Of a stretch of 64,000 nucleotides of DNA, positions 19,597-45,151 are shown piece after piece. Position 1 is the first letter of the stretch. Every line of letters starts with the position of its first letter. The stretch is taken from assembly GCA_963931035.1 (NCBI GenBank), contig OZ006979.1, positions 1,960,238 through 2,024,237 of the forward strand, written 5' to 3'. Below the pieces are notes generated by a model. The model ran no database searches. It was not told the DNA's origin and saw only the letters and a program-made list of their open reading frames with translations. This DNA is from an uncultured Atopobiaceae bacterium. Lineage in GTDB: Bacteria > Actinomycetota > Coriobacteriia > Coriobacteriales > Atopobiaceae. The position numbers and the translations under genes were made by a program.

Positions 19597-21030
19597 ATGT
19601 TTGACTTCCTCATGTCCGCCATCACCGCCCTGAACGACAACGTGCTGTGGGGCGTCCCCATGGTCGTGCTGATGCTGGGAACCGGCGTGTTCCTGCTCTT
19701 TGTCATCAAGGGCGTCGTGTTCACGCGCTTCAATGTGGTCATGCGCTACACCACCAAGACGCTCTTCCAGCGCGCCGATCCGTCGGAGGCGGGGGAGGGC
19801 ACCATCTCGCCCTTCCAGGCGGTGTGCACCGCGCTCGCGGCGACGCTCGGTACCGGCAACATCGTGGGCGTGGCGCTCGCGGTGGCCACGGGCGGCCCGG
19901 GATCGATCTTCTGGCTGTGGCTCTCCGCGCTGGCCGGCATGGTCATCAAGTTCTGCGAGGTCACGCTCTCGGTGGCCTACCGCACGCGCAACGAGCGCGG
20001 CGAGATCGTGGGCGGCCCCATGTACTACATCTCCCGCGGGCTGGGCAAGACCTGGCTCGCCATGCTGTTCGCCGCCTTCGGCTTCCTCGCGTCCTTCGGC
20101 ATCGGCGCGAGCGTGCAGGCCAACTCGCTCGCCGGCAGCGTGAACGCCACCTTTGGGGTGCCGCTGCCCGTCATCGGCGCCGTCGTGGCGCTGCTCGCGG
20201 GTCTCGTCCTCATCGGCGGCATCACCCGCATCGCTCAGATTACCGAGAAGCTCGTGCCGTTTGCCGCCATCTTCTACCTCGTCGGCGCCGCGGCGGTGCT
20301 CGTCGTCAACGCCGCCGAGATCCCCGCGGCGATCGCCCAGATCTTCCGCGACGCCTTCACTGGCACCGCAGCCACGGGCGGCTTTTTGGGCGCCACGGTC
20401 ATGTACGCGTGCCGCGTGGGCATGTCGCGCGGCGTGTTCACGCACGAGGCGGGCATGGGCTCGGCGCCCATCGCGCACGCCTCCGCCGACACCGACCACC
20501 CCGCCCGCCAGGGCCTGTGGGGCACCTTCGAGGTGTTCTTCGACACCATCGTCATGTGCACGATCACGGGCCTTGTGATCATCACCTCGGGGCTGTGGCA
20601 CGCCGACCCCATGATGTCCGAGGGCGCCATGAGCTCGGAGGCCTTCGGGCAGAGCATCCCCTTTGGCCAGTACATCGTGACCGTGGGCCTCATGCTCTTC
20701 GCGTTTGCCACGCTGATTGCGTGGTACTACTACGGCGAGAAGTGCGTCGAGTACCTCTTCCGCAAGAGCCGCGCCCAGCGCGTGGCGGTGCGCGTCTACC
20801 AGGTTGCCTATGTGGCCATGGTGTTCGCGGGCTGCGTGACCAACCTCGACGTGGTGTGGGAGTTCGCCGACTGCTTCAACGGCCTCATGGCGATCCCCAA
20901 CCTCATCGCGCTGATCGCGCTCTCGCCCGTGATCCGCCGGCTTGCCGCGGACTTCTTCCGCGACCCCGACCGCCGCCGCCCGCGCGACACTGACTACAGC
21001 GGGATGCTGGTGTTTAGGGACAAGCGCTAG
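19597..21030 (+). CDS. Alanine/glycine:cation symporter (AGCS) family transporter
   Basis: GVPMVVLMLGTGVFL, ATLGTGNIVGVALA and GGPGSIFWLWLSALAGM are hallmark AGCS motifs. Confidence 0.85.
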   Translation: MFDFLMSAITALNDNVLWGVPMVVLMLGTGVFLLFVIKGVVFTRFNVVMRYTTKTLFQRADPSEAGEGTISPFQAVCTALAATLGTGNIVGVALAVATGGPGSIFWLWLSALAGMVIKFCEVTLSVAYRTRNERGEIVGGPMYYISRGLGKTWLAMLFAAFGFLASFGIGASVQANSLAGSVNATFGVPLPVIGAVVALLAGLVLIGGITRIAQITEKLVPFAAIFYLVGAAAVLVVNAAEIPAAIAQIFRDAFTGTAATGGFLGATVMYACRVGMSRGVFTHEAGMGSAPIAHASADTDHPARQGLWGTFEVFFDTIVMCTITGLVIITSGLWHADPMMSEGAMSSEAFGQSIPFGQYIVTVGLMLFAFATLIAWYYYGEKCVEYLFRKSRAQRVAVRVYQVAYVAMVFAGCVTNLDVVWEFADCFNGLMAIPNLIALIALSPVIRRLAADFFRDPDRRRPRDTDYSGMLVFRDKR

Positions 21031-21212: not shown

Positions 21213-22055
21213 ATGGGCCTTGATGCCACGGTGCGCTGTCGGTGCTTTGAGGAGGGCAAACTCAAACCTGGCCCCCTTCCGCTGGATGACCTGTATATCG
21301 ACGAGGAGGGATACCTCTCGTCGCACAAGTTGGACGCGGCTCATGCGAGATTGACGTACCGGCAGTTTGACGCTCGGTATGACGATCTCCAGAGGGAGTT
21401 CGAGAAATGGGCGGACTCTTGCTGCGAGCACGAGTGCGGGGAGTACTGCTCTGAGTGGGTAGGCAATATAGCAGGGTGTGCTCAGTTTGAGTCCCTTGTT
21501 GAGGCTGCTGGCGGTGAAGCTGAGTTTCCCTTGCTTGCAAAACTGCTTCCGCACGCGAACGGGGGAACGTATCCGGCAGAGATGGCGGCTGCCACCCTGG
21601 AAGAGCTGGACCGGTTCATCGAGAAGGTCAGTGACGTCGATGAGTGGATCCTATGTGACGCAGAATCTGATACAGAAATCTGGACCTCCACGGAGAAGGC
21701 GTCGTTTCCGTGGATGATGGGTCCGTTCGACGAGGTGAGAATGACCGGCGGCAAGGTCTGCTTCTTACATGCGGGGCGTCCACCGGTGGAGACGACTCAC
21801 TTCAAGCAGGTTCCGCTCGGTAAGTCAAGCGAGAGTGGCTGTCAGCGGATGGAGATCATCTGTCTGGATACGGGTGCGACGACGGAGACCTTTGACTCCA
21901 TCGGGCCGGAGGGGGCTCCGAAGGTCGAGCGCGAGTTCTATGTCACCTCAAAGAAGGCCCCTTTCCTCTACGAAGGTAAGTACGGGACCGCGGAACGCAT
22001 ACGGAACCTACTCGTTGCCTCTCTCGAGACGGGCAACCCGATAAGGTGGTGCTAA
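21213..22055 (+). CDS. Hypothetical protein (Cys-rich N-terminus), first gene of a 4-gene accessory cluster
   Basis: 280-aa ORF with a coding-like composition. GGAGG before the ATG. No recognisable domain. Confidence 0.45.
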   Translation: MGLDATVRCRCFEEGKLKPGPLPLDDLYIDEEGYLSSHKLDAAHARLTYRQFDARYDDLQREFEKWADSCCEHECGEYCSEWVGNIAGCAQFESLVEAAGGEAEFPLLAKLLPHANGGTYPAEMAAATLEELDRFIEKVSDVDEWILCDAESDTEIWTSTEKASFPWMMGPFDEVRMTGGKVCFLHAGRPPVETTHFKQVPLGKSSESGCQRMEIICLDTGATTETFDSIGPEGAPKVEREFYVTSKKAPFLYEGKYGTAERIRNLLVASLETGNPIRWC

Positions 22056-22057
22056 CA

Positions 22058-22921
22058 ATGAGGCGTCACATCGTTCCGGACGAGGCCTCGGTTGAGGTCC
22101 CGCATCTCAGCTACAAAGACAGACACGCGCTGAACCGCCTGACGGCATACGGACGTCCCATACTCGAGGGGAGCTTGCTCCGCTGCGGCTGTTTCCATTG
22201 CGGGAGCTCGTTTGTGGCGAGCAAGATTACCGACTGGATGCCTGAGGAGGACGGCGCGGACACAGCCCTCTGTCCGTACTGCGGGTGCGACGCCGTACTT
22301 TATGACACGAAGGAGTTCCCGCTGTCCACGGCCTTGCTCTCGAGCATGTATATGGAGTGGTTCAAGTCGAAATACCAGGAGCGGGAGACAGTCGCGACGT
22401 ACGCTCCGTCGTTCTCGGGATATGATGACTACCTGAGGCAGGGCATCGCCTTTCGATTGGAGAAAAGCCCTAGGCACGAGCTGGTAGGGGAGGTCGAGCT
22501 CTGGCTGATGGATAACATCAGCGACTGGGATTGGCTCGTGGATAAAGGTTTAGCTGAACTCTATTCTGACGATATGGTTGACGCGGGCTCGCATGCCGAG
22601 GAGGAAGAGGGGCCTAAGGAGGAGCCAGACGAGAAAAACAAGGACGCCGGCGGCCTGTTGAGAATCGTTGCTCATGTCGAGAATGGCGAGTCTGCCGAGT
22701 ACGAGTTCATCGACGAGCGCGGTCATGTGATCTCTTACCCGCTCTGGCATGAGGAGGATCGTTGCCTGCTTCGCGAGCTTCTAGAAAAGCACGGCTCGCG
22801 TCTCATGGGCCTGCTCGTTGACCCCTTTGGCTCAAAAGTGCGGCTCGTTGTTGATCATGGAGAAGGAGCTGCTAATCCAACTATTCCAGCTGCTTGCTGG
22901 AATCAAGCCGCCTATCGATAA
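22058..22921 (+). CDS. Hypothetical cysteine-rich protein (CGCFHCG...CPYCGCD zinc-ribbon-like, CPCC-type motif)
   Basis: Starts 3 nt after the previous stop. Four-cysteine motif plus an acidic low-complexity linker. Confidence 0.45.
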   Translation: MRRHIVPDEASVEVPHLSYKDRHALNRLTAYGRPILEGSLLRCGCFHCGSSFVASKITDWMPEEDGADTALCPYCGCDAVLYDTKEFPLSTALLSSMYMEWFKSKYQERETVATYAPSFSGYDDYLRQGIAFRLEKSPRHELVGEVELWLMDNISDWDWLVDKGLAELYSDDMVDAGSHAEEEEGPKEEPDEKNKDAGGLLRIVAHVENGESAEYEFIDERGHVISYPLWHEEDRCLLRELLEKHGSRLMGLLVDPFGSKVRLVVDHGEGAANPTIPAACWNQAAYR

Positions 22922-22997
22922 CTGCCCTTCAGTCGCTGTGTGGGCGGTAAGATTTGTCTGTGATAGCCCACTAATCCCTTTGACCAAGGAGAGTGTT

Positions 22998-23810
22998 GTG
23001 GCAAATCCTGAAGAGCTCGACAGTCAGGACATTCCGAGCACGAAGCGTTCGGCGGATATGTACGTTGATGCTGTCAACGCGGTTATCGGGCTTGCCGGCA
23101 TGGCCGTACCACTACTCGTCCCGGGCGGAAAGGCCGCTGCCGTTGCAGGTGCTGTTGTGAAGGCAGCCCCGGTAATACAGGGTGTTGCCAACCAACTTCC
23201 CAAAATAGCGCCCGTGGTGGCTCCGGCGGCAAAGAAGGTTGTTGGCGTCGCTGCCGAGAAAGCCCCCGACGCTGTTGCTGCTGGGTTCGGCAAGGTTGCT
23301 GCCGCTGCCAAGGGTGCCGCTGAAGCGGCGGGAGGGGCGGCGGTTGGGGCGAGAAACGCGGTGCAGGGAGCGATAGACGCCAAGGCCCAGGAGAAGGCAC
23401 GCAAGCTTGCTCGCAGGACCCTGCTCGATGGTGCTGGGATTCGTATGTCCTCGGCCTCGTTCATGGAGAACTGGGATGCACAGTCCAAGCTTCAGGAGGG
23501 GAGCACTGGCGAAGGCTATCTCAACTACTGCGGCTGCTATGCGATTATCACCTGTGACGGTGCTGTCCACAAGGATGATTACAGCAAGTATCGGGAAATC
23601 TACGTGGGCAAGTCCACGAACATGGGGGCAAGCATTCACGACGACTTCGTCGGCAAGGGAAACGCGGACGTCTACGCCGACGTAAAGTACAAGCAGCATG
23701 TCTACGTTCTGCTCTATCCATGCTCAGAGGACAAGCTTGACCAGCTGGAGGAGTCGCTTATCACCGCCTTGGACGCGGATGCATCATACAATCGTGAACG
23801 TCTCTCTTGA
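22998..23810 (+). CDS. GIY-YIG nuclease-domain protein with Ala/Gly/Val-rich N-terminal region
   Basis: C-terminal GCYAIIT-(11 aa)-REIYVGKSTNMGASIHDDF...LEESLITALDADASYNRE fits GIY-x10-YVGK...R/H...E...N of GIY-YIG (compare UvrC IYVGKAKDLRKRLSSYF). GTG start after AGGAGAG. Confidence 0.55.
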   Translation: MANPEELDSQDIPSTKRSADMYVDAVNAVIGLAGMAVPLLVPGGKAAAVAGAVVKAAPVIQGVANQLPKIAPVVAPAAKKVVGVAAEKAPDAVAAGFGKVAAAAKGAAEAAGGAAVGARNAVQGAIDAKAQEKARKLARRTLLDGAGIRMSSASFMENWDAQSKLQEGSTGEGYLNYCGCYAIITCDGAVHKDDYSKYREIYVGKSTNMGASIHDDFVGKGNADVYADVKYKQHVYVLLYPCSEDKLDQLEESLITALDADASYNRERLS

Positions 23811-23921
23811 GAATCCCGCATAGCAGCTACTCGCGGGCGCATACGCTGTCCGTCCTTCTTCTGGCCACGGACTTTTCGAGGGATATCCTAGCTATAGAGA
23901 CAAACCAGAATCGGGGACGCC

Positions 23922-25220
23922 ATGTCAGACAGTAGCGAAACAACTCAAGAAATCACCGTCATCAAAGACGAGCACGGCCTGCTTTTTCTCGGCGACCCCA
24001 AGGAGATCAAGACCTGGCTTGACGAGCGCGGTCTTGCCTCTCGCGAGTTCGCTACCAAGGCATTGAGGACCGGTGGCTCTGCCGTGCAAACGGCAGCCAA
24101 GGTGTCCTCGGAGTCCGGTCGCTGGGTGAAGCTCACTAAGGACTCCGCCAAGCTTCTCGAGAAGTATGGCAAGGCGGGCGCCATACAACCCGGTGTGGTG
24201 CAGAAGTCAAATGGACAGATTGTCAAGTGGCTCAGGTTTGAGAATCCGAGCCAGCTCTTCTCTCCTGCTATGGCGACGGGCGTTGCCGGGATGATGACCC
24301 AGATGGCGCTCGAGCAGGCCATCCAGGAGATTACGGACTATCTCAAGAGCATTGACGAGAAGGTCGGAGACCTCCTTCAAGACCAGAAGGACCAGACCGT
24401 GGCCGACCTCATTGGGGTGGTCTTTGAGGTGGACGAGGCTGCGGCAATCAGGGACAAGGCGGGCACATTGAGCGATGCCGCTTGGTCAAAGCTTGCCCCG
24501 TGTGCTCAGACGACGAGCCGGGCGCTCGGATATGCCTTGACCAAGCTTCAGGGCATTTCGGACAAGCTCTCGCGCGCCGAGTCTGTCGATAAGATCGAGC
24601 ACGTGCTGAGCGCTGCAAAGGAAGACGTGCCCGCGTGGCTCGTTATGGTTTCCAGGGCTGTGCAGACGAGGGACAAGCTCTCGGTCATCGAGCTGGAACG
24701 TGCCTACGCCGAGCTTCCCGAGGTGCTCGAGGAGCATCGCTTGGGAATCGTGGAGGCGAGGCGAGAGCGCCTTGGCAAGGTCAAGGCCAGGATTGATGCC
24801 CTTCGCGAGGTGCTCGAACTGTCGGCAGACAGGGTCAGGGAGGAGAAGCTTCTCCATCCCTTTGCCGTGGATGACGTTCTCAGAACTCTTGATTCACTGA
24901 TGGAGCAGACCAGTCAGTTCTCCAAGGGGCTCGATATCGAGATGGACGAGAAAGTCATCGAGCGTGCTCCGGAGTGGCTTGACGTTGCCGGGAAGCTTGC
25001 TGGCGACGTTGCCTCGGGTGCCGCGAACGGCGCGCAGCAGCTTGGCGGTGCTATTGCTGATGGGGCGGGAGCTCTGAGCGAGGCAGCGGGGAAGGGGGCC
25101 GCTGATCTTGGGGCTGCCGTGGCTGACGGAGTTCATGAGCTTGGCAAGGCCATTGGTAGTGTTGATCTCAAGAAGGCTGCGGATTCGCTTCCGCTCAAGC
25201 TTCCATTTGGGAAGCGCTAG
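23922..25220 (+). CDS. Hypothetical coiled-coil protein with C-terminal Ala/Gly-rich repeats
   Basis: 432 aa. The C-terminal GDVASGAANGAQQLGGAIADGAGALSEAAGKGAADLGAAVADG resembles the Ala-rich segment of the GIY-YIG protein. Confidence 0.5.
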   Translation: MSDSSETTQEITVIKDEHGLLFLGDPKEIKTWLDERGLASREFATKALRTGGSAVQTAAKVSSESGRWVKLTKDSAKLLEKYGKAGAIQPGVVQKSNGQIVKWLRFENPSQLFSPAMATGVAGMMTQMALEQAIQEITDYLKSIDEKVGDLLQDQKDQTVADLIGVVFEVDEAAAIRDKAGTLSDAAWSKLAPCAQTTSRALGYALTKLQGISDKLSRAESVDKIEHVLSAAKEDVPAWLVMVSRAVQTRDKLSVIELERAYAELPEVLEEHRLGIVEARRERLGKVKARIDALREVLELSADRVREEKLLHPFAVDDVLRTLDSLMEQTSQFSKGLDIEMDEKVIERAPEWLDVAGKLAGDVASGAANGAQQLGGAIADGAGALSEAAGKGAADLGAAVADGVHELGKAIGSVDLKKAADSLPLKLPFGKR

Positions 25221-25530
25221 ACAGAGTAATCCCAGAGATTGCAAATGACCTTCTCATGAAGACTGGCTGCAGAATCTGGCGCGCTCATAATCTCGCAGTA
25301 TTCCTGTCCGGTAAACAATTGACGTCAGTTCCGGCAAGCGAAAGAAGATGTGAAGGCAGCAATTAATTTGCAAGAACAGTATCTTCGAGCCTATATGGCT
25401 TGAAGATCCGGTCATCGCGTCGCTATCAAAATACGATGATTAGTATGTTCGACGCTGCTCTATTGGTGGAGAGAAAACCGCGTAGGTATAGCGTGCTAAA
25501 CTGCAATCTGGTCACGGTGAAGCTCGATCT

Positions 25531-27288
25531 TTGAATGTGAATCGCATTCGCAAAAGAACTGTTTCTCACTGCGGGCAACTGTTTGATGGACTGATTGAAT
25601 TAGCCTTGTTGTCGCCTGGACCGTCCGGAAGGAGCTTCACCGTGGCCTCTCCTGAGATTAGATTTACAAGCATCTCTACAAACGCTCAACTTGCCGAATA
25701 CTGCGGTGTTTCATGGGATGAGCTGAGAATGCTTGCGTATGCAGATGGAATCAAGCGGTATACGGAGTGGCTTGTTCCAAAAAAGAATGGGGAAGGCTTC
25801 AGGCGTATCTCCTCGCCCATGGCAAACCTGAGAAGAGTGCAACGGGCGATTGCTAAGGGCCTATCGGAATCCTATAGCCCCCTGAAATGCGTTTACGGCT
25901 TTGTTTGTGAGCGCAATGTGGCCATGAATGCTTTGCAGCACGCAAGAAAAAGAACGGTGCTCACCCTCGATCTCAAGGACTTCTTTCCGTCGATTTCAGC
26001 TTCACGTATTCACGGTCTTTTCGTTAAGACAATGGGTTTTCCTCAAGAGGTGGCAAATACGCTAACTAACTTAGTCCGCCACGAAGGGTCTTTGCCCCAG
26101 GGCGCGCCGACTTCTCCTGTAATAAGCAACATGATATGCTTCAAGATGGACCGAGCACTATTAAACTTTGCAGCAAATAACGGTCTTACATACACAAGAT
26201 ATGCCGACGACCTTGTCTTCTCCAGTACGAGTGCGTACTCAGCTCGAAAGATGGTAGATCAGGAGAAGAACGCTGTTTGTGGCATCAATCACTTTATTAC
26301 AGACACGATTGAGGCTAATGGTTTTGAAATTAATGAGCGAAAGGTTCATGTTGCAAACCGCGGGAGTCGTCAGATAGTCAATGGTATAATAGTCAATCAA
26401 AAGTGCAATATAAGGAGAAGTCAATACAGGGAGTTCAGAGCCCTATTCCATAGGTGGTCAAAGGAGGGCTATTCTGCGGCGGCCGCTGCATACTTCCGGA
26501 ACAAGAAAAACCATTGCTACAAGCCAAAGCTATGTGATGGAGACGAGCTGTGCGACGAGAAAACATTCGCGAGGCACATCCGTGGGCGTCTCGACTATTT
26601 CTCAATGGTTGTAGGGGTAAATGGACACCCTACTGAGCCGATGGCAAAGTTGTGGACCCTCTTTCATCAAGTTACGCATGAGCGTGTGCCGTACCTAACC
26701 TTTGAGAAATCGGCAGTTCAGCTTTCGTACGCGTTTGATTCCAGAGAGACGGACGATGTAGTCGGAGCAGATTCAAGCGGAGTGATAATCCAGGACATCT
26801 TGATGACGTGCAGTCATGGTCTGCCCAAAGAATGTATCGATAAGAATGGAGACGCTGTTTCTATTGATATCCGAACGGCGTTTGGCGGGAGTTTTTCTAT
26901 AGAAGCGTCTAGATTTAAGAAATATTCTGGCTTTGACTTTGCGTTTGCGCGGCTTGACGCAGATTACCGCGATTTGGGCATACAGTCGGTTAATCCAAGC
27001 TATATGCCTCAGGCGGGCGAGACAATATACGCCTCGGGATACGCAGGCGGCAATACACCTTCGCACTGCGTACAGGCTTCAGTGCTCCCTAGTCGTTACG
27101 GTAATGGAAGCGTTGTTGTCGATAGGGCGTTCATCAAGGGAATGAGCGGTGGGCCTGTCTTTAACACTCGACACGAGGTAATCGGAATTGTTCTTAAGGG
27201 AAGTGACGAATCGAGTTACTCAAGGGATGGCGAATTTCTTCCTTTCAAATCCATTTCCGATTTTGAGCCTTTTGCTCTACGCAAATGA
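25531..27288 (+). CDS. Retron-type reverse transcriptase fused to a C-terminal trypsin/chymotrypsin-like serine protease domain
   Basis: Retron-RT N-terminal signature YTEWLVPKKNGEGFRRISSPMANLRRVQRAIAKGL. RT motifs LTLDLKDFFPSI, SLPQGAPTSP and YTRYADDLVFS (YADD). VNGIIVN sits at the position of the retron VTG motif. C-terminal GYAGG...KGMSGGPVF is the GDSGGP-type serine protease motif. Alternative TTG/GTG start, so the start is uncertain. Confidence 0.75.
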   Translation: MNVNRIRKRTVSHCGQLFDGLIELALLSPGPSGRSFTVASPEIRFTSISTNAQLAEYCGVSWDELRMLAYADGIKRYTEWLVPKKNGEGFRRISSPMANLRRVQRAIAKGLSESYSPLKCVYGFVCERNVAMNALQHARKRTVLTLDLKDFFPSISASRIHGLFVKTMGFPQEVANTLTNLVRHEGSLPQGAPTSPVISNMICFKMDRALLNFAANNGLTYTRYADDLVFSSTSAYSARKMVDQEKNAVCGINHFITDTIEANGFEINERKVHVANRGSRQIVNGIIVNQKCNIRRSQYREFRALFHRWSKEGYSAAAAAYFRNKKNHCYKPKLCDGDELCDEKTFARHIRGRLDYFSMVVGVNGHPTEPMAKLWTLFHQVTHERVPYLTFEKSAVQLSYAFDSRETDDVVGADSSGVIIQDILMTCSHGLPKECIDKNGDAVSIDIRTAFGGSFSIEASRFKKYSGFDFAFARLDADYRDLGIQSVNPSYMPQAGETIYASGYAGGNTPSHCVQASVLPSRYGNGSVVVDRAFIKGMSGGPVFNTRHEVIGIVLKGSDESSYSRDGEFLPFKSISDFEPFALRK

Positions 27289-27615
27289 TAAGTGAGGGTA
27301 GCTCCTGATTGAAAAGAACATCCGAGTGACATAGCGCAGTGACTATCGAGAGAGCTTGGTTACGTGCAAAGGTCTGTAACTGCATTTCTCTAATGAGGTG
27401 TATGAATAGTTGCGTTTAGGCGGCGTTCCCGAGCGTAACGAGTCTTTGCTGCAGGAATGGTTGCTCCGCCCTTCTTAAACTCTTTCGTCTCGATCGATCG
27501 CATTCGTCGATATCACTTGCACTCCTTTCCCCTGATTCTAGTGTTGATTGCTGCCTGATGATTCCCTGTTGATGTGGAAGATGGCGAGTTAGCGGATTGA
27601 CATGCCGCGGACCAT

Positions 27616-28644
27616 GTGTGGCACATGGTAAAATCTTCTGCTTGCAAGGAATGGCATCGCATCGGACGGTGCGGCAACATCAGGTGGAAAGGGCAGGTCG
27701 GCACGTTGTCTGCGAATCAGGTACAGAGCAATAGCATCACTGCTGTGGACCTCTTCTCTGGCTGCGGCGGCATGTCCCTCGGCTTCGAGAATGCCGGGTT
27801 TAAGGTGCTAGCTGCATTTGACAACTGGACGCCAGCTGTCGAGGTGTACCGCAAGAATTTCGACCATCCCATTCTTGAGCAGGACCTCTCTGATGTTAAT
27901 GCTTCCGTCCCTCTTGTCCGACAGCTTGCCCCTACAGTCGTTTTCGGCGGGCCGCCTTGTCAGGATTTCTCGACGGCTGGGCATCAGGACGAGAACGGCG
28001 GTCGAGCCATTCTCTCGGTTGCTTTCGCGAAGATCGTTTCCCGAGTAAGGCCGCAGTGGTTCGTGATGGAGAATGTCGCGACCATAAGAAACACGCGCTC
28101 GTTCAAGCGTGCTTGCGATACCTTTCGAGAGGCGGGGTATGGTCTTACCTGCAAGGTGCTTAATGCCGCATATTGTGGGGTGCCGCAAATCCGTAAGCGC
28201 ATGTTCGTTATCGGGGGCATCGGTGAAGAGGATAACTTTCTTGATGATGTGCTCGACAAGGGGCTGAGCGAAAAGCCTCTCACGATCAGAGACTATCTCG
28301 GCGACTCGCTTGGGATCGATCACTACTTTCGCGTGCCGACGAATTACAGCCGGAGAGGCGTGTTCAGCATCGACGAACCGTCTATGACCATCCGCGCGGT
28401 CGACCGTCCTATACCGCCGGGGTATAAGGGCAACCCCAATGACTCCGCTCCCGTGAGCGAGACGCGCATATTAACTCCGAAGGAGCGCAGCTACATCCAG
28501 ACCTTCCCCGAGGAGTTCGAGTTCTTCGGGAGTAAGTCAGACGTGAACACGATGATTGGCAATGCCGTTCCGGTTAACCTGGCCAATTACGTCGCAAGAG
28601 CTCTGATGGGCTACATCTCCAACAAGAATGGTGGTAACGAATGA
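27616..28644 (+). CDS. DNA (cytosine-5)-methyltransferase, first of a tandem pair (LlaJI M1-like)
   Basis: Motif I DLFSGCGGMSLGF, motif IV GGPPCQDFSTAG, ENV motif. The N-terminus is probably shorter than the ORF. Confidence 0.85.
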   Translation: MWHMVKSSACKEWHRIGRCGNIRWKGQVGTLSANQVQSNSITAVDLFSGCGGMSLGFENAGFKVLAAFDNWTPAVEVYRKNFDHPILEQDLSDVNASVPLVRQLAPTVVFGGPPCQDFSTAGHQDENGGRAILSVAFAKIVSRVRPQWFVMENVATIRNTRSFKRACDTFREAGYGLTCKVLNAAYCGVPQIRKRMFVIGGIGEEDNFLDDVLDKGLSEKPLTIRDYLGDSLGIDHYFRVPTNYSRRGVFSIDEPSMTIRAVDRPIPPGYKGNPNDSAPVSETRILTPKERSYIQTFPEEFEFFGSKSDVNTMIGNAVPVNLANYVARALMGYISNKNGGNE

Positions 28645-29537
28645 GAGCCGTCGACATCTTCTCTGGTTGCGGCGGCATGTCTCTTGGTTTCGAGCAGGCT
28701 GGATTTAAGGTTGTCGCCGCGTTCGACAACTGGAAGCCTGCAGTGGAGATTTACCGCGCGAACTTCACGCATCCCATCTATGAGAAGGATCTCTGTGACG
28801 AGGATTCCGTTGAAACCATCAAGGAACTGAGGCCCGACTTGATCATGGGAGGGCCTCCCTGTCAGGACTACTCGATTGCGGGCAAGCGCACTGAGGGGGC
28901 GCGGGCGAACCTTACCATCCGGTTCGCCGAGATTGTCGCGGGCGTATTGCCTGAATGGGTCGTGTTCGAGAACGTCTACAACATCGAGAGGTTCGGCACG
29001 CTGCCGCGAATGAAGGCGATGCTCAAGGATGCCGGATATGGATTGAGCTCTCGCGTGCTCGATGCGAGCCGCTGTGGGGTGCCCCAGGCAAGAAAGCGCT
29101 TCATTCTGGTCGGCAGGCTCGGCGCCGAGGATGGGTTCTTCGACGAGTCGTTCGTTGAGGGCATGGCGGAAAAGCAGATGACCGTGCGGGATTATCTGGG
29201 TGACAAGCTCGGCACGCAGTACTATTACATGCACCCGCGCAGCTACAACCGGCGTGCCGTCTTCTCCGTTGACGAGCCCTCCGCGACGATACGTGGAATT
29301 AACAGGCCGATACCGGAGAACTACAAGCGACATCATGCCGATGCAGCGGCAATTGAAGACGGCGTTCGTGCTCTCACGACGAAGGAGCGCAGTTACCTGC
29401 AGTCCTTTCCCGAGGAGTTCAAGCTTGAGGGCGCAAAGACAAGCGTCGAGCTTGCCATCGGGAATGCCGTTCCTCCGGCATTGGCGAAATACGTTGCCGA
29501 ACGTGTCTTAAAATATGAGAACGGCGTTGAGCAGTAA
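28641..29537 (+). CDS. DNA (cytosine-5)-methyltransferase, second of the tandem pair (LlaJI M2-like)
   Basis: VDIFSGCGGMSLGF, GGPPCQDYSIAG, ENV. A paralog of the preceding gene with a 4-bp overlap. Confidence 0.85.
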   Translation: MRAVDIFSGCGGMSLGFEQAGFKVVAAFDNWKPAVEIYRANFTHPIYEKDLCDEDSVETIKELRPDLIMGGPPCQDYSIAGKRTEGARANLTIRFAEIVAGVLPEWVVFENVYNIERFGTLPRMKAMLKDAGYGLSSRVLDASRCGVPQARKRFILVGRLGAEDGFFDESFVEGMAEKQMTVRDYLGDKLGTQYYYMHPRSYNRRAVFSVDEPSATIRGINRPIPENYKRHHADAAAIEDGVRALTTKERSYLQSFPEEFKLEGAKTSVELAIGNAVPPALAKYVAERVLKYENGVEQ

Positions 29538-29540
29538 GAG

Positions 29541-31481
29541 GTGAGTGCCTTGTCGTACTTCAAGCAGACCGAGGATTACCGGACCTATCAGGGCGAGGAG
29601 TGCGACTTCCATCTTGACTACAACGCGAACAGCGGCGGAGGCCAGGCATTCCTTGGCGGGGCGTTTGCCGGGAAAGATGGCGGAAGAGCCTCAGCCTCGA
29701 CGCTCGGTGGCCTGACTGCCACTTTTGCGCTTCGCTTCCATAGGGCTGACGGCAGCGTGTGCAAAGTTGACTTGGGGACGCAGGAGTCGTATCGCTACCC
29801 TGTTTCTCCTCGCGGAGCCGGAAGCCAGCAGATGAAGCTAAGTCTTGGGGGGAAGGTCAGACCGAGCCTGCTGTTGCCGGCTGTCATGATGCTTCCTGAG
29901 ACAACGACCATCAACATGGCGGACTCTCTTGAACTCTCGCCGCTTACGAGGGGAAATTACTGGCTGAGATCTATGTGGCTCGATTGCGAGCTCGAAGATG
30001 ACGGTTCGGCTTGCTTCATTCCCAAGGACTATGTGTTCAGTGGCGGCCTCTCTAAGCAGGGTAAGTACGCGACGGAAGACGGTAAGCCAACCGGAGAAGC
30101 CATGTTCTTCACGCTCGATTTCGAGCGACGGATGAATGACATCCTCTATGCAGCAGATCGCTGCAGCGCTCTTCCGAAGGCTGCGGCCGACGTCCTGCGA
30201 CACTTTGGCGCTGTCCTTCTCGGCGTCGTACCGTTTGATTGCGAAGATTGCTACAAGAGAACCGCTGAGCTCATGAGCCTGATTGCTCACGAGTGCCCTA
30301 CGACCTATTCGGGCATCGGCGACCCGCTGCCTGCTGTGATGGATATTGTTGGACGCCCGACTTTTCTCGATCATTCTGTCGTTTCCGTCCCGTCAAGCGT
30401 CCCCGAGCCCCGCAACCTCATCTTCTTCGGGGCTCCTGGCACGGGCAAGTCGTACCGGCTCGCACGGCAGGCGGAGAAGTATTTCGACAAGAGGAACGTC
30501 AGGCGCGTCACCTTCCACCCCGACTACACCTACGCTCAGTTCGTGGGCTGCTACAAGCCGGTCACGACGATGCGCACGGTGACCGATGAAGATGGAACCG
30601 AGAGCACCCAGAGCGAGATCAGCTACGGTTTCGTTCCGGGGCCGTTCCTGGAGACATACATCGCTGCGGTGCAGAACCCCGGCACGAACTACTTGCTTGT
30701 CGTTGAGGAGATCAATCGCGCGAACCCGGCGGCCGCGTTCGGTGACGTGTTCCAGCTGCTTGACCGCGACTCCGACGGTCGCAGCGAGTACGAGATTGCT
30801 GCGCCGCGCGAGATGCGCGAGTACCTGCGCGTGTTCCTACCGGAGTACGCCACGACTGCGTATATCCAAGACCCGGAGCGGTTACTCTCCGAGCAGCTGC
30901 GTCTCAGGGACGAGGCGGAGCGGCTGTCGCTGCCGCCCAACATGTTCATCTGGGCAACCATGAACAGCGCGGATCAGGGCGTCTTCCCGATGGACACCGC
31001 TTTCAAGCGTCGCTGGGACTTCCGCTACATGGGCATAGACAAGGGCTCGGACAAGATCGCCGGCTACGCCGTGCCGGTCGGGACGCCCGCGCGCATGGTG
31101 AGCTGGGACGCTTTGAGGCGTGGCATCAACCAGGTGCTGCTCAATGCGGGCGTGAACGAGGACAAGCTGCTCGGGCCGTTCTTCATCTCGCCCGCGAGGC
31201 TCGCTGATCCCGACGGCTTCACTCAGGTTTTCAAGGACAAGGTGCTGCTCTACCTCTTCGAGGATGCCGCCAAAACCAAGGCTTCGAAGGTGTTCTCTCA
31301 CGAAGGCCGTGCGACGTACTCGGATGTTTGCGAGGACTTCGAGAGTTTTGGAGAGCTTGCGTTCAGGGGTATGCGCGAGTTGCCGTCCTTCTCGCCGGCC
31401 AACGCGAGCGTGACTGATGAGCTTGAGGCCGGAGAGGAAGCGGACGCCGTGGAGGAGCCTGTTTCTGACGGTGCGGAGTAG
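29541..31481 (+). CDS. McrB-like AAA+ GTPase restriction subunit (LlaJI R1-like)
   Basis: Walker A FFGAPGTGKS, VVEEINRAN, and McrB-family signature ATMNSADQG...FKRRWDF, with an unrelated roughly 280-aa N-terminal (DNA-binding) domain. GTG start. Confidence 0.75.
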   Translation: MSALSYFKQTEDYRTYQGEECDFHLDYNANSGGGQAFLGGAFAGKDGGRASASTLGGLTATFALRFHRADGSVCKVDLGTQESYRYPVSPRGAGSQQMKLSLGGKVRPSLLLPAVMMLPETTTINMADSLELSPLTRGNYWLRSMWLDCELEDDGSACFIPKDYVFSGGLSKQGKYATEDGKPTGEAMFFTLDFERRMNDILYAADRCSALPKAAADVLRHFGAVLLGVVPFDCEDCYKRTAELMSLIAHECPTTYSGIGDPLPAVMDIVGRPTFLDHSVVSVPSSVPEPRNLIFFGAPGTGKSYRLARQAEKYFDKRNVRRVTFHPDYTYAQFVGCYKPVTTMRTVTDEDGTESTQSEISYGFVPGPFLETYIAAVQNPGTNYLLVVEEINRANPAAAFGDVFQLLDRDSDGRSEYEIAAPREMREYLRVFLPEYATTAYIQDPERLLSEQLRLRDEAERLSLPPNMFIWATMNSADQGVFPMDTAFKRRWDFRYMGIDKGSDKIAGYAVPVGTPARMVSWDALRRGINQVLLNAGVNEDKLLGPFFISPARLADPDGFTQVFKDKVLLYLFEDAAKTKASKVFSHEGRATYSDVCEDFESFGELAFRGMRELPSFSPANASVTDELEAGEEADAVEEPVSDGAE

Positions 31482-31485
31482 CGCC

Positions 31486-32961
31486 ATGCGCACGGTCTAC
31501 GTTCGTGAGCGTTCTTTCCACACCCCAGTGAGCCTCGCGCGTACGCTTGGCATCGAGGTGGATGACACCGACCGCTACATCGCCCTTCTGTGCGCGCACG
31601 GCGTGCTTCGGTTGAGGACGGGTGACGAGCCGAAAGAGTACGATCCGCTTGGAGAGAGCGCGCCGCGCGGGACCTATCAGTTCGTCTACGTCGGTCTCGC
31701 CCTGGTGGAGAGCGTCTGCATCGTCGTGTACCCGAAGTACCTGCCCGAGGTCGACCCCCTGTGTCCCGATGACGCCACAAAGGCCGCGATGCGCCAGGTG
31801 TTCAGGGTGCTTCGCAAGAGCGGTGGAAGCTACGCCAGCATTGCCGCCGCGACTGAGGAGGGCATGGGGGCGAACGACCGCCTGGCGCTCATGCTCTCGC
31901 TGCTCGAGATGTATGACGAGTATGGCGTCTACTCTAACTACGTGCGCACCATTGCGGACAACGGGTCGGGCAACATCAGCTGGGAGCGCACCATCGCGGC
32001 GAACCTTCCCTTCGTGCGGGATGGGCGTCCCATCTACTTTGACTACAAGACCGTGGAGACTGACGCCGACGCCTCTGACTTCGTAACGCGACTGCATCGC
32101 GCGGTGCTTACGGAGTGCTCGCGCTTCATGCAGGAGAGCGGGCTGGCTCAGCTGCTGGCGCTCGACGAGGTGTGGCTGAGCGATTCCTCCGTGGCGGACT
32201 TTGGGGACGCCGACTTCGTGGCGTACCGGCTGGAGCGCGAGCGGGCGGTGCAGTTCGTCACGTGGAAGCAGGACGTGATCGACCTGCTCGTGCGCTATGT
32301 GCGCGACGAGGGCATGTCTGCGACGTCGGACGCGCCTCTGTGCCTGGGGACGTCAAGCTTCCATCACGTGTGGGAGACGGCGTGCAAGGTCGCGTTCGGT
32401 GACGTGCTGGCCGTTCGACTGGGGGAGCTGGGGATTGAGCTGGCTCCGCCGTTCGCGGGGATGGCGGAAAAGCGACTTATCGATGTCATCCCGAGACCGG
32501 AGTGGGCTGCATTAGGCGCTGGCGAGGAGCGGGCGTGCGGCGAGGTTGCGACGCTGATCCCGGACATCGTGACGGTGCGAGGTGCCGGCGGGCGCGCCGC
32601 CGCCGGGGGCGGGACGTTCGCCATCCTCGACGCCAAGTACTACATGCCGCTGCTGGGCGAGCGTGTTGGCGGCGTGCCGGGCGTGGAGTCGGTGACCAAG
32701 CAGTTCCTGTATCAGGCCGCGTACCGCGACTTTGTGCTCGCGTACGGGTTCTCCAGGGTGGTGAACGCGTTTCTCGTGCCGTCGTGCGGTGACGCCGTTG
32801 AGCATCTGGGGCGCGTGCGCTTCCCCGGCGTGATCGCTGCCGAGGAGCCGCCGTTCTCGAACGAGGTGGAGCTGTACGCGCTGCCGGCAGAGGCGGTGTT
32901 CGACGCCTATGTGGGCGGACGGGAGTTGGACGCCGCGCGCCTTGCTGAGGTGGTTGGCTAG
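31486..32961 (+). CDS. McrC-like PD-(D/E)xK nuclease subunit (LlaJI R2-like)
   Basis: Follows the McrB-like gene by 4 nt. PD...D/ExK-like IPDIVTV...FAILDAKYY. Confidence 0.6.
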   Translation: MRTVYVRERSFHTPVSLARTLGIEVDDTDRYIALLCAHGVLRLRTGDEPKEYDPLGESAPRGTYQFVYVGLALVESVCIVVYPKYLPEVDPLCPDDATKAAMRQVFRVLRKSGGSYASIAAATEEGMGANDRLALMLSLLEMYDEYGVYSNYVRTIADNGSGNISWERTIAANLPFVRDGRPIYFDYKTVETDADASDFVTRLHRAVLTECSRFMQESGLAQLLALDEVWLSDSSVADFGDADFVAYRLERERAVQFVTWKQDVIDLLVRYVRDEGMSATSDAPLCLGTSSFHHVWETACKVAFGDVLAVRLGELGIELAPPFAGMAEKRLIDVIPRPEWAALGAGEERACGEVATLIPDIVTVRGAGGRAAAGGGTFAILDAKYYMPLLGERVGGVPGVESVTKQFLYQAAYRDFVLAYGFSRVVNAFLVPSCGDAVEHLGRVRFPGVIAAEEPPFSNEVELYALPAEAVFDAYVGGRELDAARLAEVVG

Positions 32962-33383: not shown

Positions 33384-35900
33384 CTAATGTGTGCCTGACG
33401 GTATGTTGATTGCAATAGGAGTTGTAGTATCAATCTTTTGCGATATGGCGCTGTATAGATCGGCGTCTGCGTCCGGTGTTTCAATGCTGACAACCAGCGA
33501 GTAGCGCGCTTTGGAATCAACACGATTCTCTGAATGGCGTTCACGCCACCAGCCTATGACAGGGAACACAGCGACGTTTTCAATGTCACTGAAGTCGAGC
33601 GCGGTCCCGTCTTTGAAGTCGGAAAAGATCGAGCCGATTCTTCTGTTATTCTGGCCCAGGAACCAGCCCTTCGATCCGCTCACACCCCTTCCCCCATCCT
33701 CGCCTCGCATGTTAACGTTAACCCTGCGAGCGAAATCGTCGGCGGATTCTCCAGGGTTGTTGACATCGAACCTTAACCCGTGAGAGGCGTAACGATATCT
33801 GTCCTTCCACCCTCGCATGCCGGGGCTCGGCTCAATGTAATACGAAAGCGTGACCCTCAAGCGCGCTTTCGTGTCACCGAGTTCGCGCAAAAGGTCGCTG
33901 GGCCAAGGAAGGTGATGAAGGTGCATGTCCTTCATGCAATATTGCTTGTGCCCGTTGTTTACAACGCACTCATATGGAGTCAATTCATCCTGAATGATGA
34001 GATTCACGCTGTTGCCAGCGCATTCAATTGCCTTGTCGAGCTGGGGTATGCCATACCCGCAAGCATGGAGCAGTTCACGGCGACCTGTGGATTGCCTGTC
34101 TCGTTCGGAGTCAGTCGGGCAAAACATGCTAATCATCGCTTCGGACCATCGGGCAGAGTGCACGAGGAGGGCACGGATAGTTTCCGACCAGAGCGCTGGG
34201 TAGGCATTTTCGATTTCAGCTGCCATCCAGGCTGCTTTCGCGACTGCCGCGCTCGTGGCGTTGAAGTGTTTCAGTGGATGTCCGGCTATGTCTGCTCCTG
34301 TGGACAGAGGAGAAAGATCTTCTATGCTCCATATGTGGCCGCTGCAATCTCTGGCGGCGTTTCCGCCATCGAGCACAATCTCCGGCTTCACTAAAGATGG
34401 ACGGTCCCATTGCATCGAAGTGGAGCTGAACGGAGAGAGACCGCCATGCTCCGCAACTGGTTCGTACCCTTGGGATTGTAGAGAAGTATCGAAGATAAAT
34501 GCATTTTTGCTGCACGCGCCAACGGTCAGCGCATTCCAGGCCTGTCCGGGAGTGCGCACGGGTGAAATCATATTGGCGTCTGGATAGCCCGCATCGGATA
34601 AAAGCGAAGGGTTCACGTTTCCAGCCGAGACCAAGAAAAGCTCGTGCTCCTCTTCAGGATTATCTGGATGCGAAATAGCGGCATCTACCGCCGCAGACCA
34701 TGATGTCGGTTTGCCGTTCGAGACGTCGGCTTCGTTCGCAGTGACCGCCGAGCAGAAGATGCGATTCTCTTCATAGCTTCCGCTCGTGGCGATATCGAAG
34801 CCCTGCTGGGTGATTGCCGCATATAGTTCGGGATTGCTCGGGTGCTGGGGCTCGTAAATCTTCACCGATTCCAGCCTATGAGTGATAATCACGGGTTCTG
34901 TTGAGGTCACCTTGCTGCTTAAGTCTCCATATAACGCGATGCCCGCAACGCCCGTACCATGATCCTTGTTGTCGGAGGACCCCCATGATGAATCTACGGA
35001 ATCGACCGTGCTCCCCTCAAATGCAGCCTTCAGCAGGGGGTGACCACTATTAACTCCCGAATCAAGTATGCACACTATTGACTTTCCGAAATGAATACTT
35101 GTTCTTGACTGAAGGTCACGGACCCAGAGCCCCTGCTCCTTAGCATCTGCACGGTCAAGGTATGCAGTTGCTTCCAAGGCTTCGCAGAATTCTGCTACGG
35201 AATCCGAGTTTCGTATTATCGCTTCAAGATCAGATGAATTCACACAAGCGAGTAAAACAATGCGCGAGGGGAATATGACCTGTTCGGTACGATGCTTAAT
35301 TGAGAGCTCATCAAGTAAGGTCATGAACTGATCGACGATGACGCAGGGCTGCTCCCTGTCGTATCGAAGCCAGACTTCAGTCCATTGCTTTGTTTCGGTA
35401 GGCATTCTTTCCGGGTTGCCGGTCCAGAAAGAAGCCGTCCTGTCGGCGAGGCGAATGTCTTCTACGCTCGTAACCAGCTTGTTATTCGATGGAGAGCCGG
35501 TGTCCTCTCTATCCTTTGAACTATCCGCATAGCTCCTGATTTTCTTGCCATAGAAATCGCTCTTCTTTGCCGGGACGTAGACTGTTGCTGCGAAAGAGTT
35601 ACCTTCTTGACGAACATTGAGAAGACGAACGTCTTGTCTTTGATCCTCCAGGCTGAGCACTGCCAGCTCGCCATCTGATGGTCCCCGGAAATCCAGATAT
35701 GTACCAGACCTTGTAACTGTCCCCTCCTCGCGCAATGCGCTCTCGGCCTGATAAGCCGAGGACAGGCGGTCGAGCAGCTTGGTTGCATGCCGCATACGAT
35801 CTCTTGGATAGGCATCCGAGTCGCTTCCGCCGCCTCGCTGGGGAGATTTATATTGGGTGGTTGTGCGGGTGTTCGTGAGGATAAAATTTGGCCGCTTCAT
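33384..35900 (-). CDS. S8 family (subtilisin-like) serine peptidase, large multidomain (IetS-like)
   Basis: Asp motif CILDSGVN, His motif DHGTGVAGIALYG, and a Ser-region ATSAAVA. 838 aa with N- and C-terminal extensions. There is a 4-bp gap to the upstream AAA ATPase gene. Confidence 0.7.
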   Translation of the reverse strand: MKRPNFILTNTRTTTQYKSPQRGGGSDSDAYPRDRMRHATKLLDRLSSAYQAESALREEGTVTRSGTYLDFRGPSDGELAVLSLEDQRQDVRLLNVRQEGNSFAATVYVPAKKSDFYGKKIRSYADSSKDREDTGSPSNNKLVTSVEDIRLADRTASFWTGNPERMPTETKQWTEVWLRYDREQPCVIVDQFMTLLDELSIKHRTEQVIFPSRIVLLACVNSSDLEAIIRNSDSVAEFCEALEATAYLDRADAKEQGLWVRDLQSRTSIHFGKSIVCILDSGVNSGHPLLKAAFEGSTVDSVDSSWGSSDNKDHGTGVAGIALYGDLSSKVTSTEPVIITHRLESVKIYEPQHPSNPELYAAITQQGFDIATSGSYEENRIFCSAVTANEADVSNGKPTSWSAAVDAAISHPDNPEEEHELFLVSAGNVNPSLLSDAGYPDANMISPVRTPGQAWNALTVGACSKNAFIFDTSLQSQGYEPVAEHGGLSPFSSTSMQWDRPSLVKPEIVLDGGNAARDCSGHIWSIEDLSPLSTGADIAGHPLKHFNATSAAVAKAAWMAAEIENAYPALWSETIRALLVHSARWSEAMISMFCPTDSERDRQSTGRRELLHACGYGIPQLDKAIECAGNSVNLIIQDELTPYECVVNNGHKQYCMKDMHLHHLPWPSDLLRELGDTKARLRVTLSYYIEPSPGMRGWKDRYRYASHGLRFDVNNPGESADDFARRVNVNMRGEDGGRGVSGSKGWFLGQNNRRIGSIFSDFKDGTALDFSDIENVAVFPVIGWWRERHSENRVDSKARYSLVVSIETPDADADLYSAISQKIDTTTPIAINIPSGTH

Positions 35901-35903
35901 GAT

Positions 35904-37061
35904 TTAGCCGGCCTTCTTTTCGCTGAAGTAGGCGGACAATCTGTCAGCGCAGAGACGCTGGAAGATCTCGTCGCTCAGCGAGGAATCGGCCAGCAGGGAC
36001 TCCTTCACCGCGTCCTCGCACAGGCGTGTAATGTCTGCCTGGCAGAGCTGAGACAGCTCAGCAGCGGTTTCTTCGCCAATGGAGAACTCGGGGTCGTAGG
36101 CACCCGTGCGGTTGGCGACGAGGCGCTGGACCTCATCCACGGTAGGAAGCTCATAATGCAAGACATCGTCAAAGCGCCGGAAGAGCGCTTGGTCGAGCAT
36201 TTGCCGATTGTTTGTCGCTGCGACGATGATGCTCTCGGAGACGTCTGCTTCGATGAATTGCAAGAACGAGTTGAGGATGCGGCGCATTTCGCCGACTTCG
36301 TTGTCCCTGCTACGGTCCGCGCCGATGGCATCGAACTCGTCGAATAGGTAGACAGCTCTGTTATTGGCGATTGTCTCGAAGATCTGGCGCAGCCTCGTGC
36401 TTGTCTCGCCAAGGTACTTCGTTATGAGTTTGTCGGTCTGCACGATGAAGAGCGGCAGACCGAGCTCTGCCGCGATTACCGAGGCGGTCATCGTCTTTCC
36501 GGTGCCCGGATCGCCCTCGAGCAGGAGCTTGCGGCGACAGCTGAGGCCAAAGGATGCGAGCTTCTTTCTCTGTCGGTATTCGGTGAGGACGCGATTGATC
36601 TTCTCGGTAATTTCGGGAGAAACGACTAAGTTATCGAGGCGCGCTTCGGGAAACGAGACTAGAAACAGGTTATCCTTGTTCACCAGGTTGATGATGTTGC
36701 CCTTGGTGCGAGAGGAAGCATCTACCATTGCGGTAATCTCCCGGCCTAGCGTCGTGTGTCCGGAGCGAGTCTCTGAGGCAGCTATGCGCAGCGCGGTGGT
36801 CTTGAAGCGCTCGTTATCCCGATCGTAATGTGCCTTGATGAGAGCTTTTATCTGCTCGCCGGTTGCCATGGCGCACCTCCCCCCTCCATACATTCTCCGT
36901 AATTCTACCGTGCGCTCCGAAGCCAGGCGATGGGGTTCTCGGCAAAGGGACGAATTTTCCATCTGAATTGTCCGGATGCTCTGATTGTGCTCGAGAGTCT
37001 TAATTGCTTCACTTTGTGACAAGCTCTTACCCTGACGCTGTCTCACTGTTGCCGACTTCAT
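35904..37061 (-). CDS. Classical AAA ATPase (IetA-like), operon partner of the S8 peptidase
   Basis: Walker A LLEGDPGTGKT, Walker B VYLFDEFD, and second region of homology ATNNRQMLDQALFRRF. Confidence 0.75.
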   Translation of the reverse strand: MKSATVRQRQGKSLSQSEAIKTLEHNQSIRTIQMENSSLCREPHRLASERTVELRRMYGGGRCAMATGEQIKALIKAHYDRDNERFKTTALRIAASETRSGHTTLGREITAMVDASSRTKGNIINLVNKDNLFLVSFPEARLDNLVVSPEITEKINRVLTEYRQRKKLASFGLSCRRKLLLEGDPGTGKTMTASVIAAELGLPLFIVQTDKLITKYLGETSTRLRQIFETIANNRAVYLFDEFDAIGADRSRDNEVGEMRRILNSFLQFIEADVSESIIVAATNNRQMLDQALFRRFDDVLHYELPTVDEVQRLVANRTGAYDPEFSIGEETAAELSQLCQADITRLCEDAVKESLLADSSLSDEIFQRLCADRLSAYFSEKKAG

Positions 37062-45000: not shown

Positions 45001-45151
45001 CAAGAGGCTTGTGGAGCACGTAGCTGACTGCCGCATCTGATACTGCACAGGAGAACAGTGGCCGGACCCTCTTGTGCGAGATACAGCGCTAATTGTTGTC
45101 CGGTGCTCGTGCGACACTGAGCCTGGGGAAGTCTCTCGGGAAGGTGGCGTC

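Follow-up and report, generated by a model that had tools for sequence, protein, structure and literature searches.

The stretch of DNA analyzed here (the window) comprises 64,000 nucleotides (nt) of contig OZ006979.1, positions 1,960,238 to 2,024,237, from the assembly GCA_963931035.1 of an uncultured Atopobiaceae bacterium. It carries a gene in which a reverse transcriptase (RT) is fused to a serine protease, preceded by a structured noncoding RNA (ncRNA), and by its sequence relationships the locus is a canonical type XI retron, in which the RT is joined to a chymotrypsin-fold serine protease. The gene with its domains and intact catalytic residues, a covarying and strand-specific RNA linked to RT-protease genes, and the position within a defense island are observed here. 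The locus is likely to be a self-contained retron, expressed as one transcript with the ncRNA as its leader and with a protease that is restrained by multicopy single-stranded DNA (msDNA); production of this msDNA, an anti-phage activity, and the regulation and targets of the protease would be expected by analogy with other retrons.

The RT-protease architecture has already been catalogued (type XI of Mestre et al., 2020, and dedicated PADLOC models) and is not new, nor is a new kind of system revealed. What is new comprises the corrected start codon, the located ncRNA with its covariance model, a link to mapped starts of reverse-transcribed DNA (RT-DNA), and the overlap between the start codon and a2, the 3′ arm of the stem that bounds the ncRNA. 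The compact unit of ~1.8 kb, consisting of a putative promoter, the 138-nt ncRNA with its mapped a1/a2, a candidate priming G, a predicted msd, and an RT-protease of 548 amino acids (aa) with a mapped triad, constitutes a ready construct for studies of msDNA, protease regulation, and phage defense.

The RT-protease gene and its family

All features of the locus lie on the + strand. The open reading frame (ORF) occupies 25531..27288, corresponding to 585 aa when counted from the first TTG. An earlier note, made from the DNA letters alone, had described the 585-aa product as a retron-type RT and a trypsin-like serine protease encoded by a single gene. The ORF exists, and the fusion is borne out by a full-length match to the PADLOC model RT-Protease_XI together with Pfam matches to RVT_1 and Trypsin_2, but the real start codon is almost certainly GTG 25642 rather than TTG 25531, since it is at this codon that the PADLOC match and the homologs start, the latter being mostly 540–560 aa long. 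The 111 nt at 25531-25641 are regarded as non-coding because relatives carry indels in them that are not multiples of three. The gene thus spans 25642..27288 (stop codon included) and encodes 548 aa. A Shine-Dalgarno sequence, GGAAGGAG (25627-25634), is located 7 nt before the GTG; its last three 3′ bases fall within a2, and its GGAAGG is invariant or nearly so among 21 sequences. What is corrected is an ORF-calling error, i.e., an N-terminal extension that swallowed the ncRNA. Extensions of 35–70 aa (in proteins of 584–615 aa) are also present in database entries of the family (L085 4001-4150, P0009, P0010, P0013, P0017, and P0020), and these are probably mistranslated ncRNA, a systematic gene-calling artifact of the subfamily.

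The motifs quoted in the earlier note (YTEWLVPKKNGEGFRRI, LDLKDFFPSI, YTRYADDLVFS, VNG, and GMSGGPVF) are all found in the translation. The RT domain (~25777-26358) corresponds to RVT_1 at residues 83–276 of the 585-aa ORF (4.8e-19), with the YADD box at 26200-26211, and the protease domain (~26776-27189) to Trypsin_2 at residues 416–553 (3.4e-12). In an alignment of 35 homologs reaching down to 27% identity, the YADD box is invariant, as is the whole protease triad, H392 (26815-26817), D432 (26935-26937), and S502 (27145-27147), so that the catalytic residues of the proposed C-terminal protease are intact on alignment. Region X (NAxxH) reads NALQH, in which A97 and H100 are invariant and N96 nearly so, while region Y is VNG in this protein and its closest relatives and VTG in the remaining homologs. 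The fusion is kept intact across homologs of 27%–99% identity.

With regard to classification, RT-Protease_XI is the best PADLOC model (3e-116, 387 bits; protein residues 45–576, model positions 5–505 of 510), followed by RT-TIR_XII and then RT-Toprim_I-C, and the top PADLOC matches are all retron types. In the scheme of Mestre et al. (2020, PMC7736814), it is these three types that make up the fusions of RT clade 8. The type XII RT-TIR retron is second best over the RT part in both PADLOC (4.7e-97) and NCBIfam (1.8e-75) and shares the clade and the single-gene logic; however, its C-terminal domain is a TIR and not a protease, and the NCBIfam score of 255 bits compares with a family cut-off of 600. 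The classification of the RT domain by profile models, which the earlier note had put forward as a check, places it with retrons. A group II intron RT/maturase was rejected (NCBIfam TIGR04416, 52 bits, far under the cut-off of 300; no Rfam intron match in 24000-29000), as was a defense RT of the DRT/UG/Abi kind (NCBIfam Drt2, 42 bits against a cut-off of 390; Drt3a, 27 bits against 200). A megablast search of a plasmid collection gave no match.

When a profile of the 35 homologs was compared with solved structures, retron Ec67/Eco2 came first (4e-82, RT domain), the other retron matches in PDB being Ec86, Ec78, and Ec83, and the C-terminal half matched HtrA, V8, and Spl proteases. An AlphaFold2 model (predicted local distance difference test 89.3, predicted template modeling score 0.81) likewise points to Eco2 as the top PDB fold in Foldseek (E ~1e-25) and then to DegS/DegP/HtrA. 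Retron-Eco2 (Ec67), a type I-C RT-Toprim fusion (PDB 9lm3, 9i2f, and 9s1f), is therefore the closest solved structure by sequence and fold. The two share an RT clade, and in both an ncRNA lies upstream of one gene that fuses the RT to its effector; in Eco2 this effector is a tRNA-cutting Toprim RNase, whereas that of the locus is an S1 protease.

The ncRNA upstream of the gene

Type XI retrons were reported without a recognizable ncRNA module (Mestre et al., 2020, PMC7736814), and a 2026 preprint by Toro makes the same statement for canonical type XI, giving ncRNA models only for two protease-less lineages. The gaps upstream of the gene were aligned between the window and relatives of 91, 85, 69, and 53% protein identity, and only the last ~160 nt ahead of the RT start proved to be conserved. 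The RNA fold of this block has a free energy of −56.2 kcal/mol (z = −5.0; none of 200 shuffles as stable). Fold, covariation, and a covariance model define within it a retron ncRNA (msr-msd) of 138 nt at 25510..25647, bounded by an a1/a2 stem; it begins 21 nt upstream of the first TTG and lies mostly inside the first 37 codons of the 585-aa ORF.

The earlier note had looked for such an RNA in the flanks of the gene, and it is indeed upstream of the RT, but not at the elements proposed there. The suggested a1/a2 pair amounts to an 8-nt match (AGATTGCA, 25236-25243, and TGCAATCT, 25502-25509) that is lost even in the 85% relative; by our own estimate, 550 nt should contain about two perfect 8-mer pairs by chance alone, and one other is indeed present. 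The hairpin at 25381-25407 exists and is partly conserved, but only in the 85–91% relatives and outside the conserved block. In its full extent (25376-25412) it reads AUCUUCGAGCC-UAUAU-GGCUUGAAGAU, with one G·U pair and no U-tract, and it is situated ~160 nt past the stop codon of an upstream 432-aa ORF and ~100 nt ahead of the retron promoter. The 3′ flank, also considered as a site of msr/msd, did not hold up: it is conserved solely with a relative that shares the downstream restriction-modification (R-M) neighbor, and its predicted fold is less stable than those of shuffled sequences (z = +2.0).

The stem is a 16-nt inverted repeat (94% complementary) formed by a1, GGTCACGGTGAAGCTC (25510..25525), and a2, GAGCUUCACCGUGGCC (25632..25647), the latter including the GTG start codon (25642-25644) and codon 2; all 16 pairs are formed at this locus. 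A generic search for long-range stems returned it as the top match in 13 of 13 loci of 40–99% protein identity, with a span of 131–141 nt and widely divergent arm sequences, and in all 13, which were fetched through the protein, a2 ends 1–6 nt beyond the start codon. The graded relatives came from 12 protein look-ups, the matches listed in a scan of genome contigs all being at ≤40% identity.

Covariation was examined in two alignments. For the 13 sequences, RNAalifold yields the a1/a2 stem, a conserved 8-bp hairpin (stem-loop 1, SL1), and a short helix that brackets a hypervariable stretch; 96.4% of cells pair, vs. 34–48% when the 3′ partners are slid, double changes occur in 15 pairs vs. 3–6, and four of five measures are reached by none of 500 shuffles and the fifth by seven. 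A set of 21 sequences (39–99% protein identity), aligned with MAFFT independently of the covariance model, has 94.9% of cells paired (31–48% slid) and double changes in 17 pairs and 80 cells (3–8 and 8–18 slid), and none of 500 shuffles reaches any of the five measures. The a1/a2 stem alone has compensatory double changes in 12 of its 16 pairs, with 96.1% of cells paired in this set, from which the conservation figures below are also taken.

Inside the stem, G25526 is the first unpaired base after a1 and is invariant (21/21), which makes it the candidate branching guanosine from which priming would occur; the a1-CTCG context is shared with the validated type XI ncRNA of terminal 1122. SL1, an msr stem-loop of 8 bp at 25532..25550 (UGAAUGUG-AAU-CGCAUUCG), is paired in 100% of cells; one pair shows compensatory changes (A-U to G-C), most of the sequence is invariant, and the strand is fixed as + because two G·U pairs are invariant. 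A small stem-loop, SL2 (25555..25566, AGAA-CUGU-UUCU), is predicted in single-sequence folds; relatives have GGGGG/CCCCC, GGAA/UUCC, or GAGG/CCUC at its position, and its register shifts in the MAFFT alignment, hence it has no formal score. It is followed by the hypervariable segment, the putative msd template (25567..25631), which is unalignable in sequence and conserved in length: the distance from the end of SL1 to a2 is 77–86 nt across members. An enclosing helix (GCGG 25571-25574 with CCGU 25621-25624) has compensatory changes at four of four pairs, some hairpin is found in the variable segment of every member, and the invariant CCGGAAGG (25625-25632) adjoins a2. For genome editing, the variable segment marks a possible site of donor insertion.

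The msr hairpin of the subfamily can be written as UUUGAAUGUG-nn(n)-UCGCAUUC (window 25528-25550), with the loop UGUUUCG in several members. A similar hairpin, UUUGACUUA-UGUUUCG-UAAGU, occurs in the validated I-C2 retron of terminal 1119 (Streptococcus suis; Khan et al., 2024, supplement), and the subfamily hairpin resembles it more than it does the validated type XI hairpins. Such sequence likeness hints that ncRNA modules and effector domains may have been exchanged within RT clade 8.

The covariance model, R1, detects one copy only in the window, scoring 138 bits on the + strand vs. 21 on the − strand, the highest score of all copies. A metagenome scan with the SL1 motif returned more than 120 matches, mostly chance, and after filtering by R1, 10 copies were confirmed (70–128 bits); 12 viral matches to the motif were all chance, none being confirmed by the model. 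In nine of the 10 metagenome copies, the codon predicted within a2 is where an RT ORF starts, and these nine comprise six complete RT-proteases (542–558 aa), two that run off the contig, and one that is truncated. In the last (L120 3583-3726), the ncRNA is intact (94 bits) and the RT ends at 403 aa without the protease motif; another copy (L147 3139-3281, − strand) has an intact ncRNA (86 bits) followed by merely an 11-aa ORF. Both may be decaying copies or assembly errors. R1 finds the ncRNA of a subfamily that is missed by Rfam and lies outside the published panel of retron models (per Toro, 2026).

A −10-like hexamer, TAAACT (25497..25502), with a TG at 25494-25495 (extended −10), was recognized by comparison of loci, and a promoter function is proposed for it. 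Hexamers of the form TAnnnT (TAAACT, TATAGT, TATACT, TATCAT, TATATT, and TATAAT) are present 6–8 nt upstream of a1 in 12 of the 13 loci, in surroundings that are unalignable. Their position implies that transcription would start at or just before a1.

Several type XI members have been reported to make RT-DNA, and the study that validated ncRNAs from "clade 8, type XI" prints each ncRNA together with its sequenced RT-DNA (Khan et al., 2024, PMC10849725). The published RT-DNAs of terminals 1122, 1143, 1163, and 1235 were mapped onto their ncRNAs. RT-DNA starts beside a (G/A)GAAGG adjoining a2 in three of the four (1122, 1143, and 1163), the same motif in the same place as CCGGAAGG, and the 5′ limit of the template is at nt 48–56 of these ncRNAs. 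The locus thus resembles validated type XI retrons in its single gene, its upstream, same-strand a1/a2 ncRNA, the G after a1, and the GAAGG beside a2. On the other hand, a2 covers the start codon here, whereas it ends an estimated ~15–40 nt upstream in validated-type loci (L007, L022, and L023), and region Y reads VNG instead of VTG in the subclade of the locus. As a check on the stem search, the stems of L020 and L023 are near-identical in msr to terminal 1122 and those of L007 and L022 to terminals 1163/1165. Type XI, as judged from these sequences, has at least three ncRNA subfamilies, and the locus belongs to one that stands apart from the validated members. The protease-less lineages of Toro (2026) are clade 8 relatives of type XI, for which a1/a2-type ncRNAs were computed 22–104 and 38–388 bp upstream of the RT; they have separate WYL or DnaB_C accessory genes and no protease, whereas the locus is a canonical protease fusion.

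Proposed mechanism and alternative explanations

The mechanism envisaged is as follows. From a promoter with its −10 at 25497-25502, a single transcript starting at a1 would be made, the first 138 nt of which would fold such that the 16-bp a1/a2 stem closes a multiloop with SL1, SL2, and the variable segment. The same transcript would run on into the RT-protease ORF, with the Shine-Dalgarno sequence and the GTG in or beside a2. The RT domain would recognize the msr hairpins and prime on the 2′-OH of G25526, copying the template leftwards from ~25631 beside GGAAGG for ~65–72 nt to yield a branched msDNA; by analogy with the mapped terminals, the msd is predicted to extend from ~25560 to 25631, and the 5′ end of the DNA would read 5′-CCTTCCGG.... 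The msDNA may then keep the C-terminal S1 protease inactive within an assembly until it is degraded or modified by a phage activity; the protease, thus set free, would cut host or phage proteins, resulting in abortive infection. The model for the restraint is Eco2, whose Toprim domains are caged by a scaffold of branched msDNA until the phage nuclease DenB frees them (PMC12916289); the same 2026 study reports no structure or mechanism for any other RT-effector fusion retron and considers type XI a plausible analogue. It is for Eco2 alone that the trimer, the DenB trigger, and the three-way-junction msDNA have been shown.

Several observations weigh against this reading. A scan of 24000-29000 with Rfam at E ≤ 10 gave no match, and the ncRNA of the locus belongs to a sequence subfamily other than that of the validated type XI members, neither Rfam nor the validated msr motifs matching it. 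R1 reaches Collinsella relatives of 32% identity only weakly (E = 0.06–0.14), albeit at the expected place. In the RNA itself, the enclosing (third) helix has only 79.8% of cells paired, and shuffling does not lower the stability of the variable segment (mean z = −0.22), so that a classic long msd hairpin is unsupported. The RT-DNA of terminal 1235 starts inside a2 and not at GAAGG, and the yields of the type XI members tested were low to moderate, 0.02–0.79 × that of Eco1 (Khan et al., 2024, PMC10849725). A strict scan for sigma-70 promoters and terminators found nothing on the + strand; TAAACT was missed because there is no −35. The searched literature yielded no report that a type XI retron defends against phage, and the msDNA, transcript, and phenotype of this locus and its ncRNA subfamily are predictions.

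Of the other explanations, one holds that the conserved structure is only a translational leader, in which the 16-bp stem masks the Shine-Dalgarno sequence and start codon and throttles a potentially toxic RT-protease, with the true msr/msd, if any, elsewhere. It would account for an a2 that, at all 13 protein-fetched loci, takes in the start codon together with some of the Shine-Dalgarno sequence, for a middle segment without excess stability, and for the failure of Mestre et al. (2020, PMC7736814) to recognize a type XI ncRNA. Nevertheless, the element shows every computable hallmark of retron ncRNAs given by Khan et al. (2024, PMC10849725): it lies immediately ahead of the RT and on the same strand, its a1/a2 stem exceeds 8 bp, there is a G where a1 ends, and several hairpins are formed. 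The GAAGG is the RT-DNA start in three validated retrons whose ncRNA was placed downstream of the RT and thus could have no leader role, and nothing else in the conserved unit is conserved. A leader alone is therefore improbable, and the two roles are compatible with each other. It is similarly unlikely that the domain is a maturation protease, which would cleave the fusion itself in a retroviral-like manner or a partner, with an output other than abortive infection. Its fold is like that of the quality-control proteases HtrA, DegS, and DegP, no type XI defense phenotype was found in the searched literature, and Mestre et al. (2020, PMC7736814) merely speculated on "cleavage of targeting peptides" for type XI; yet the gene lies among defense genes here and in all relatives examined, the sister types of RT clade 8 fuse established effectors (Toprim in Eco2, TIR in type XII), and over identities of 27% to 99% the fusion stays whole and its triad does not vary. 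Very little credence is given to a decaying or silent copy, horizontally acquired as low-GC DNA and non-functional in the host: the gene has 44–50% GC vs. 68–70% for the genome and some relatives are damaged (the 403-aa truncation in L120 and the 11-aa ORF in L147), but no catalytic residue is missing from the uninterrupted ORF, the RNA has the top score of all copies (138 bits) and 16 of 16 stem pairs, and both the −10 box and the Shine-Dalgarno sequence are preserved.

Within the reading as a self-contained retron, a further and more tentative proposal concerns the overlap at the start codon. Folding and reverse transcription should, speculatively, compete with translation of the same molecule, given that the start codon is part of a2 and the Shine-Dalgarno sequence part of the predicted template. 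It is conceivable, though doubtful, that a distinct ncRNA subfamily of Coriobacteriia and related gut/environmental bacteria, with the start codon in a2 and the Shine-Dalgarno sequence in the template, fixes the ratio of RT-protease to msDNA through this choice between translation and reverse transcription. If so, reverse transcription would destroy the ribosome-binding site of its own transcript, and the protease would never be made without its msDNA restraint; within the searched literature, moreover, canonical type XI retrons with a fused protease would have in R1 their first consensus structure.

The surrounding defense island

The locus resides in an island of 25–30 kb with 48–63% GC, extending from ~18–21 kb to ~46–50 kb of the window; the core of the window has 68–70% GC. 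The low-GC pocket that the earlier note had described around the gene is real in that the flanks have ~46–48% GC, but the gene itself (44–50%) is equally low and lies within the larger island, so the low GC is not a property of the flanks alone. The neighboring LlaJI-like R-M system was correctly recognized: four genes directly downstream (27616-32961, +) encode two C5 methylases, an AAA_5 (McrB-like) protein, and RE_LlaJI. As listed, the AAA_5 ORF (29541-31481) and the RE_LlaJI ORF (31417-32961) overlap by 65 nt, and the RE_LlaJI gene probably starts further downstream than listed.

Beyond the R-M genes, the defense island contains IetS/IetA (33384-37061, −), an ABC ATPase with AAA_15/AAA_21 that is GajA/AriA/PtuA-like (of the Gabija/PARIS/Septu kind; 38857-40635, −), PDC-S56 (40713-42860, −; 5.9e-136), a GmrSD-family nuclease with GmrSD_C, RAMA, and DUF4268 (43159-44646, +), a YhcG PDDEXK nuclease (45074-46207, +), and a protein with a helix-turn-helix domain and a SocA/Panacea antitoxin domain (47506-48591, +). 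The window contains no tRNA gene.

The neighbors of the RT-protease differ in all 13 related loci and include LlaJI-like R-M, Eco57I/ResIII, type I R-M, type ISP, RES, a KAP NTPase with HD, AbiH, and Fic with SocA. Because the neighbors vary in every relative, the unit is taken to be the ncRNA plus one gene. The upstream 432-aa ORF was rejected as an accessory gene, a homolog (63% identical) being found upstream of the RT in one locus only (L083), and a 280-aa ORF further upstream recurs in one other locus (L081, 67% identical); such recurrence reflects island mosaicism and not an accessory gene. These two belong to a set of four co-oriented ORFs at 21213-25220 (280, 291, 330, and 432 aa) with no Pfam or PADLOC match, which may be uncharacterized genes of the defense island. 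The 280-aa product has a Cys-rich N-terminus (MGLDATVRCRCFEEGK...), and the 432-aa product has a Gly/Ala-rich C-terminus.

Ahead of the island, a sodium:alanine symporter gene is located at 19597-21030 of the window, and the same gene occupies 1-842 of the locus from a relative, Olsenella sp. An290 (L082), the island content of which is otherwise different. This suggests that the symporter-side position is a conserved insertion hotspot for defense genes, and also suggests a Coriobacteriia (Olsenella-like) origin of the window.

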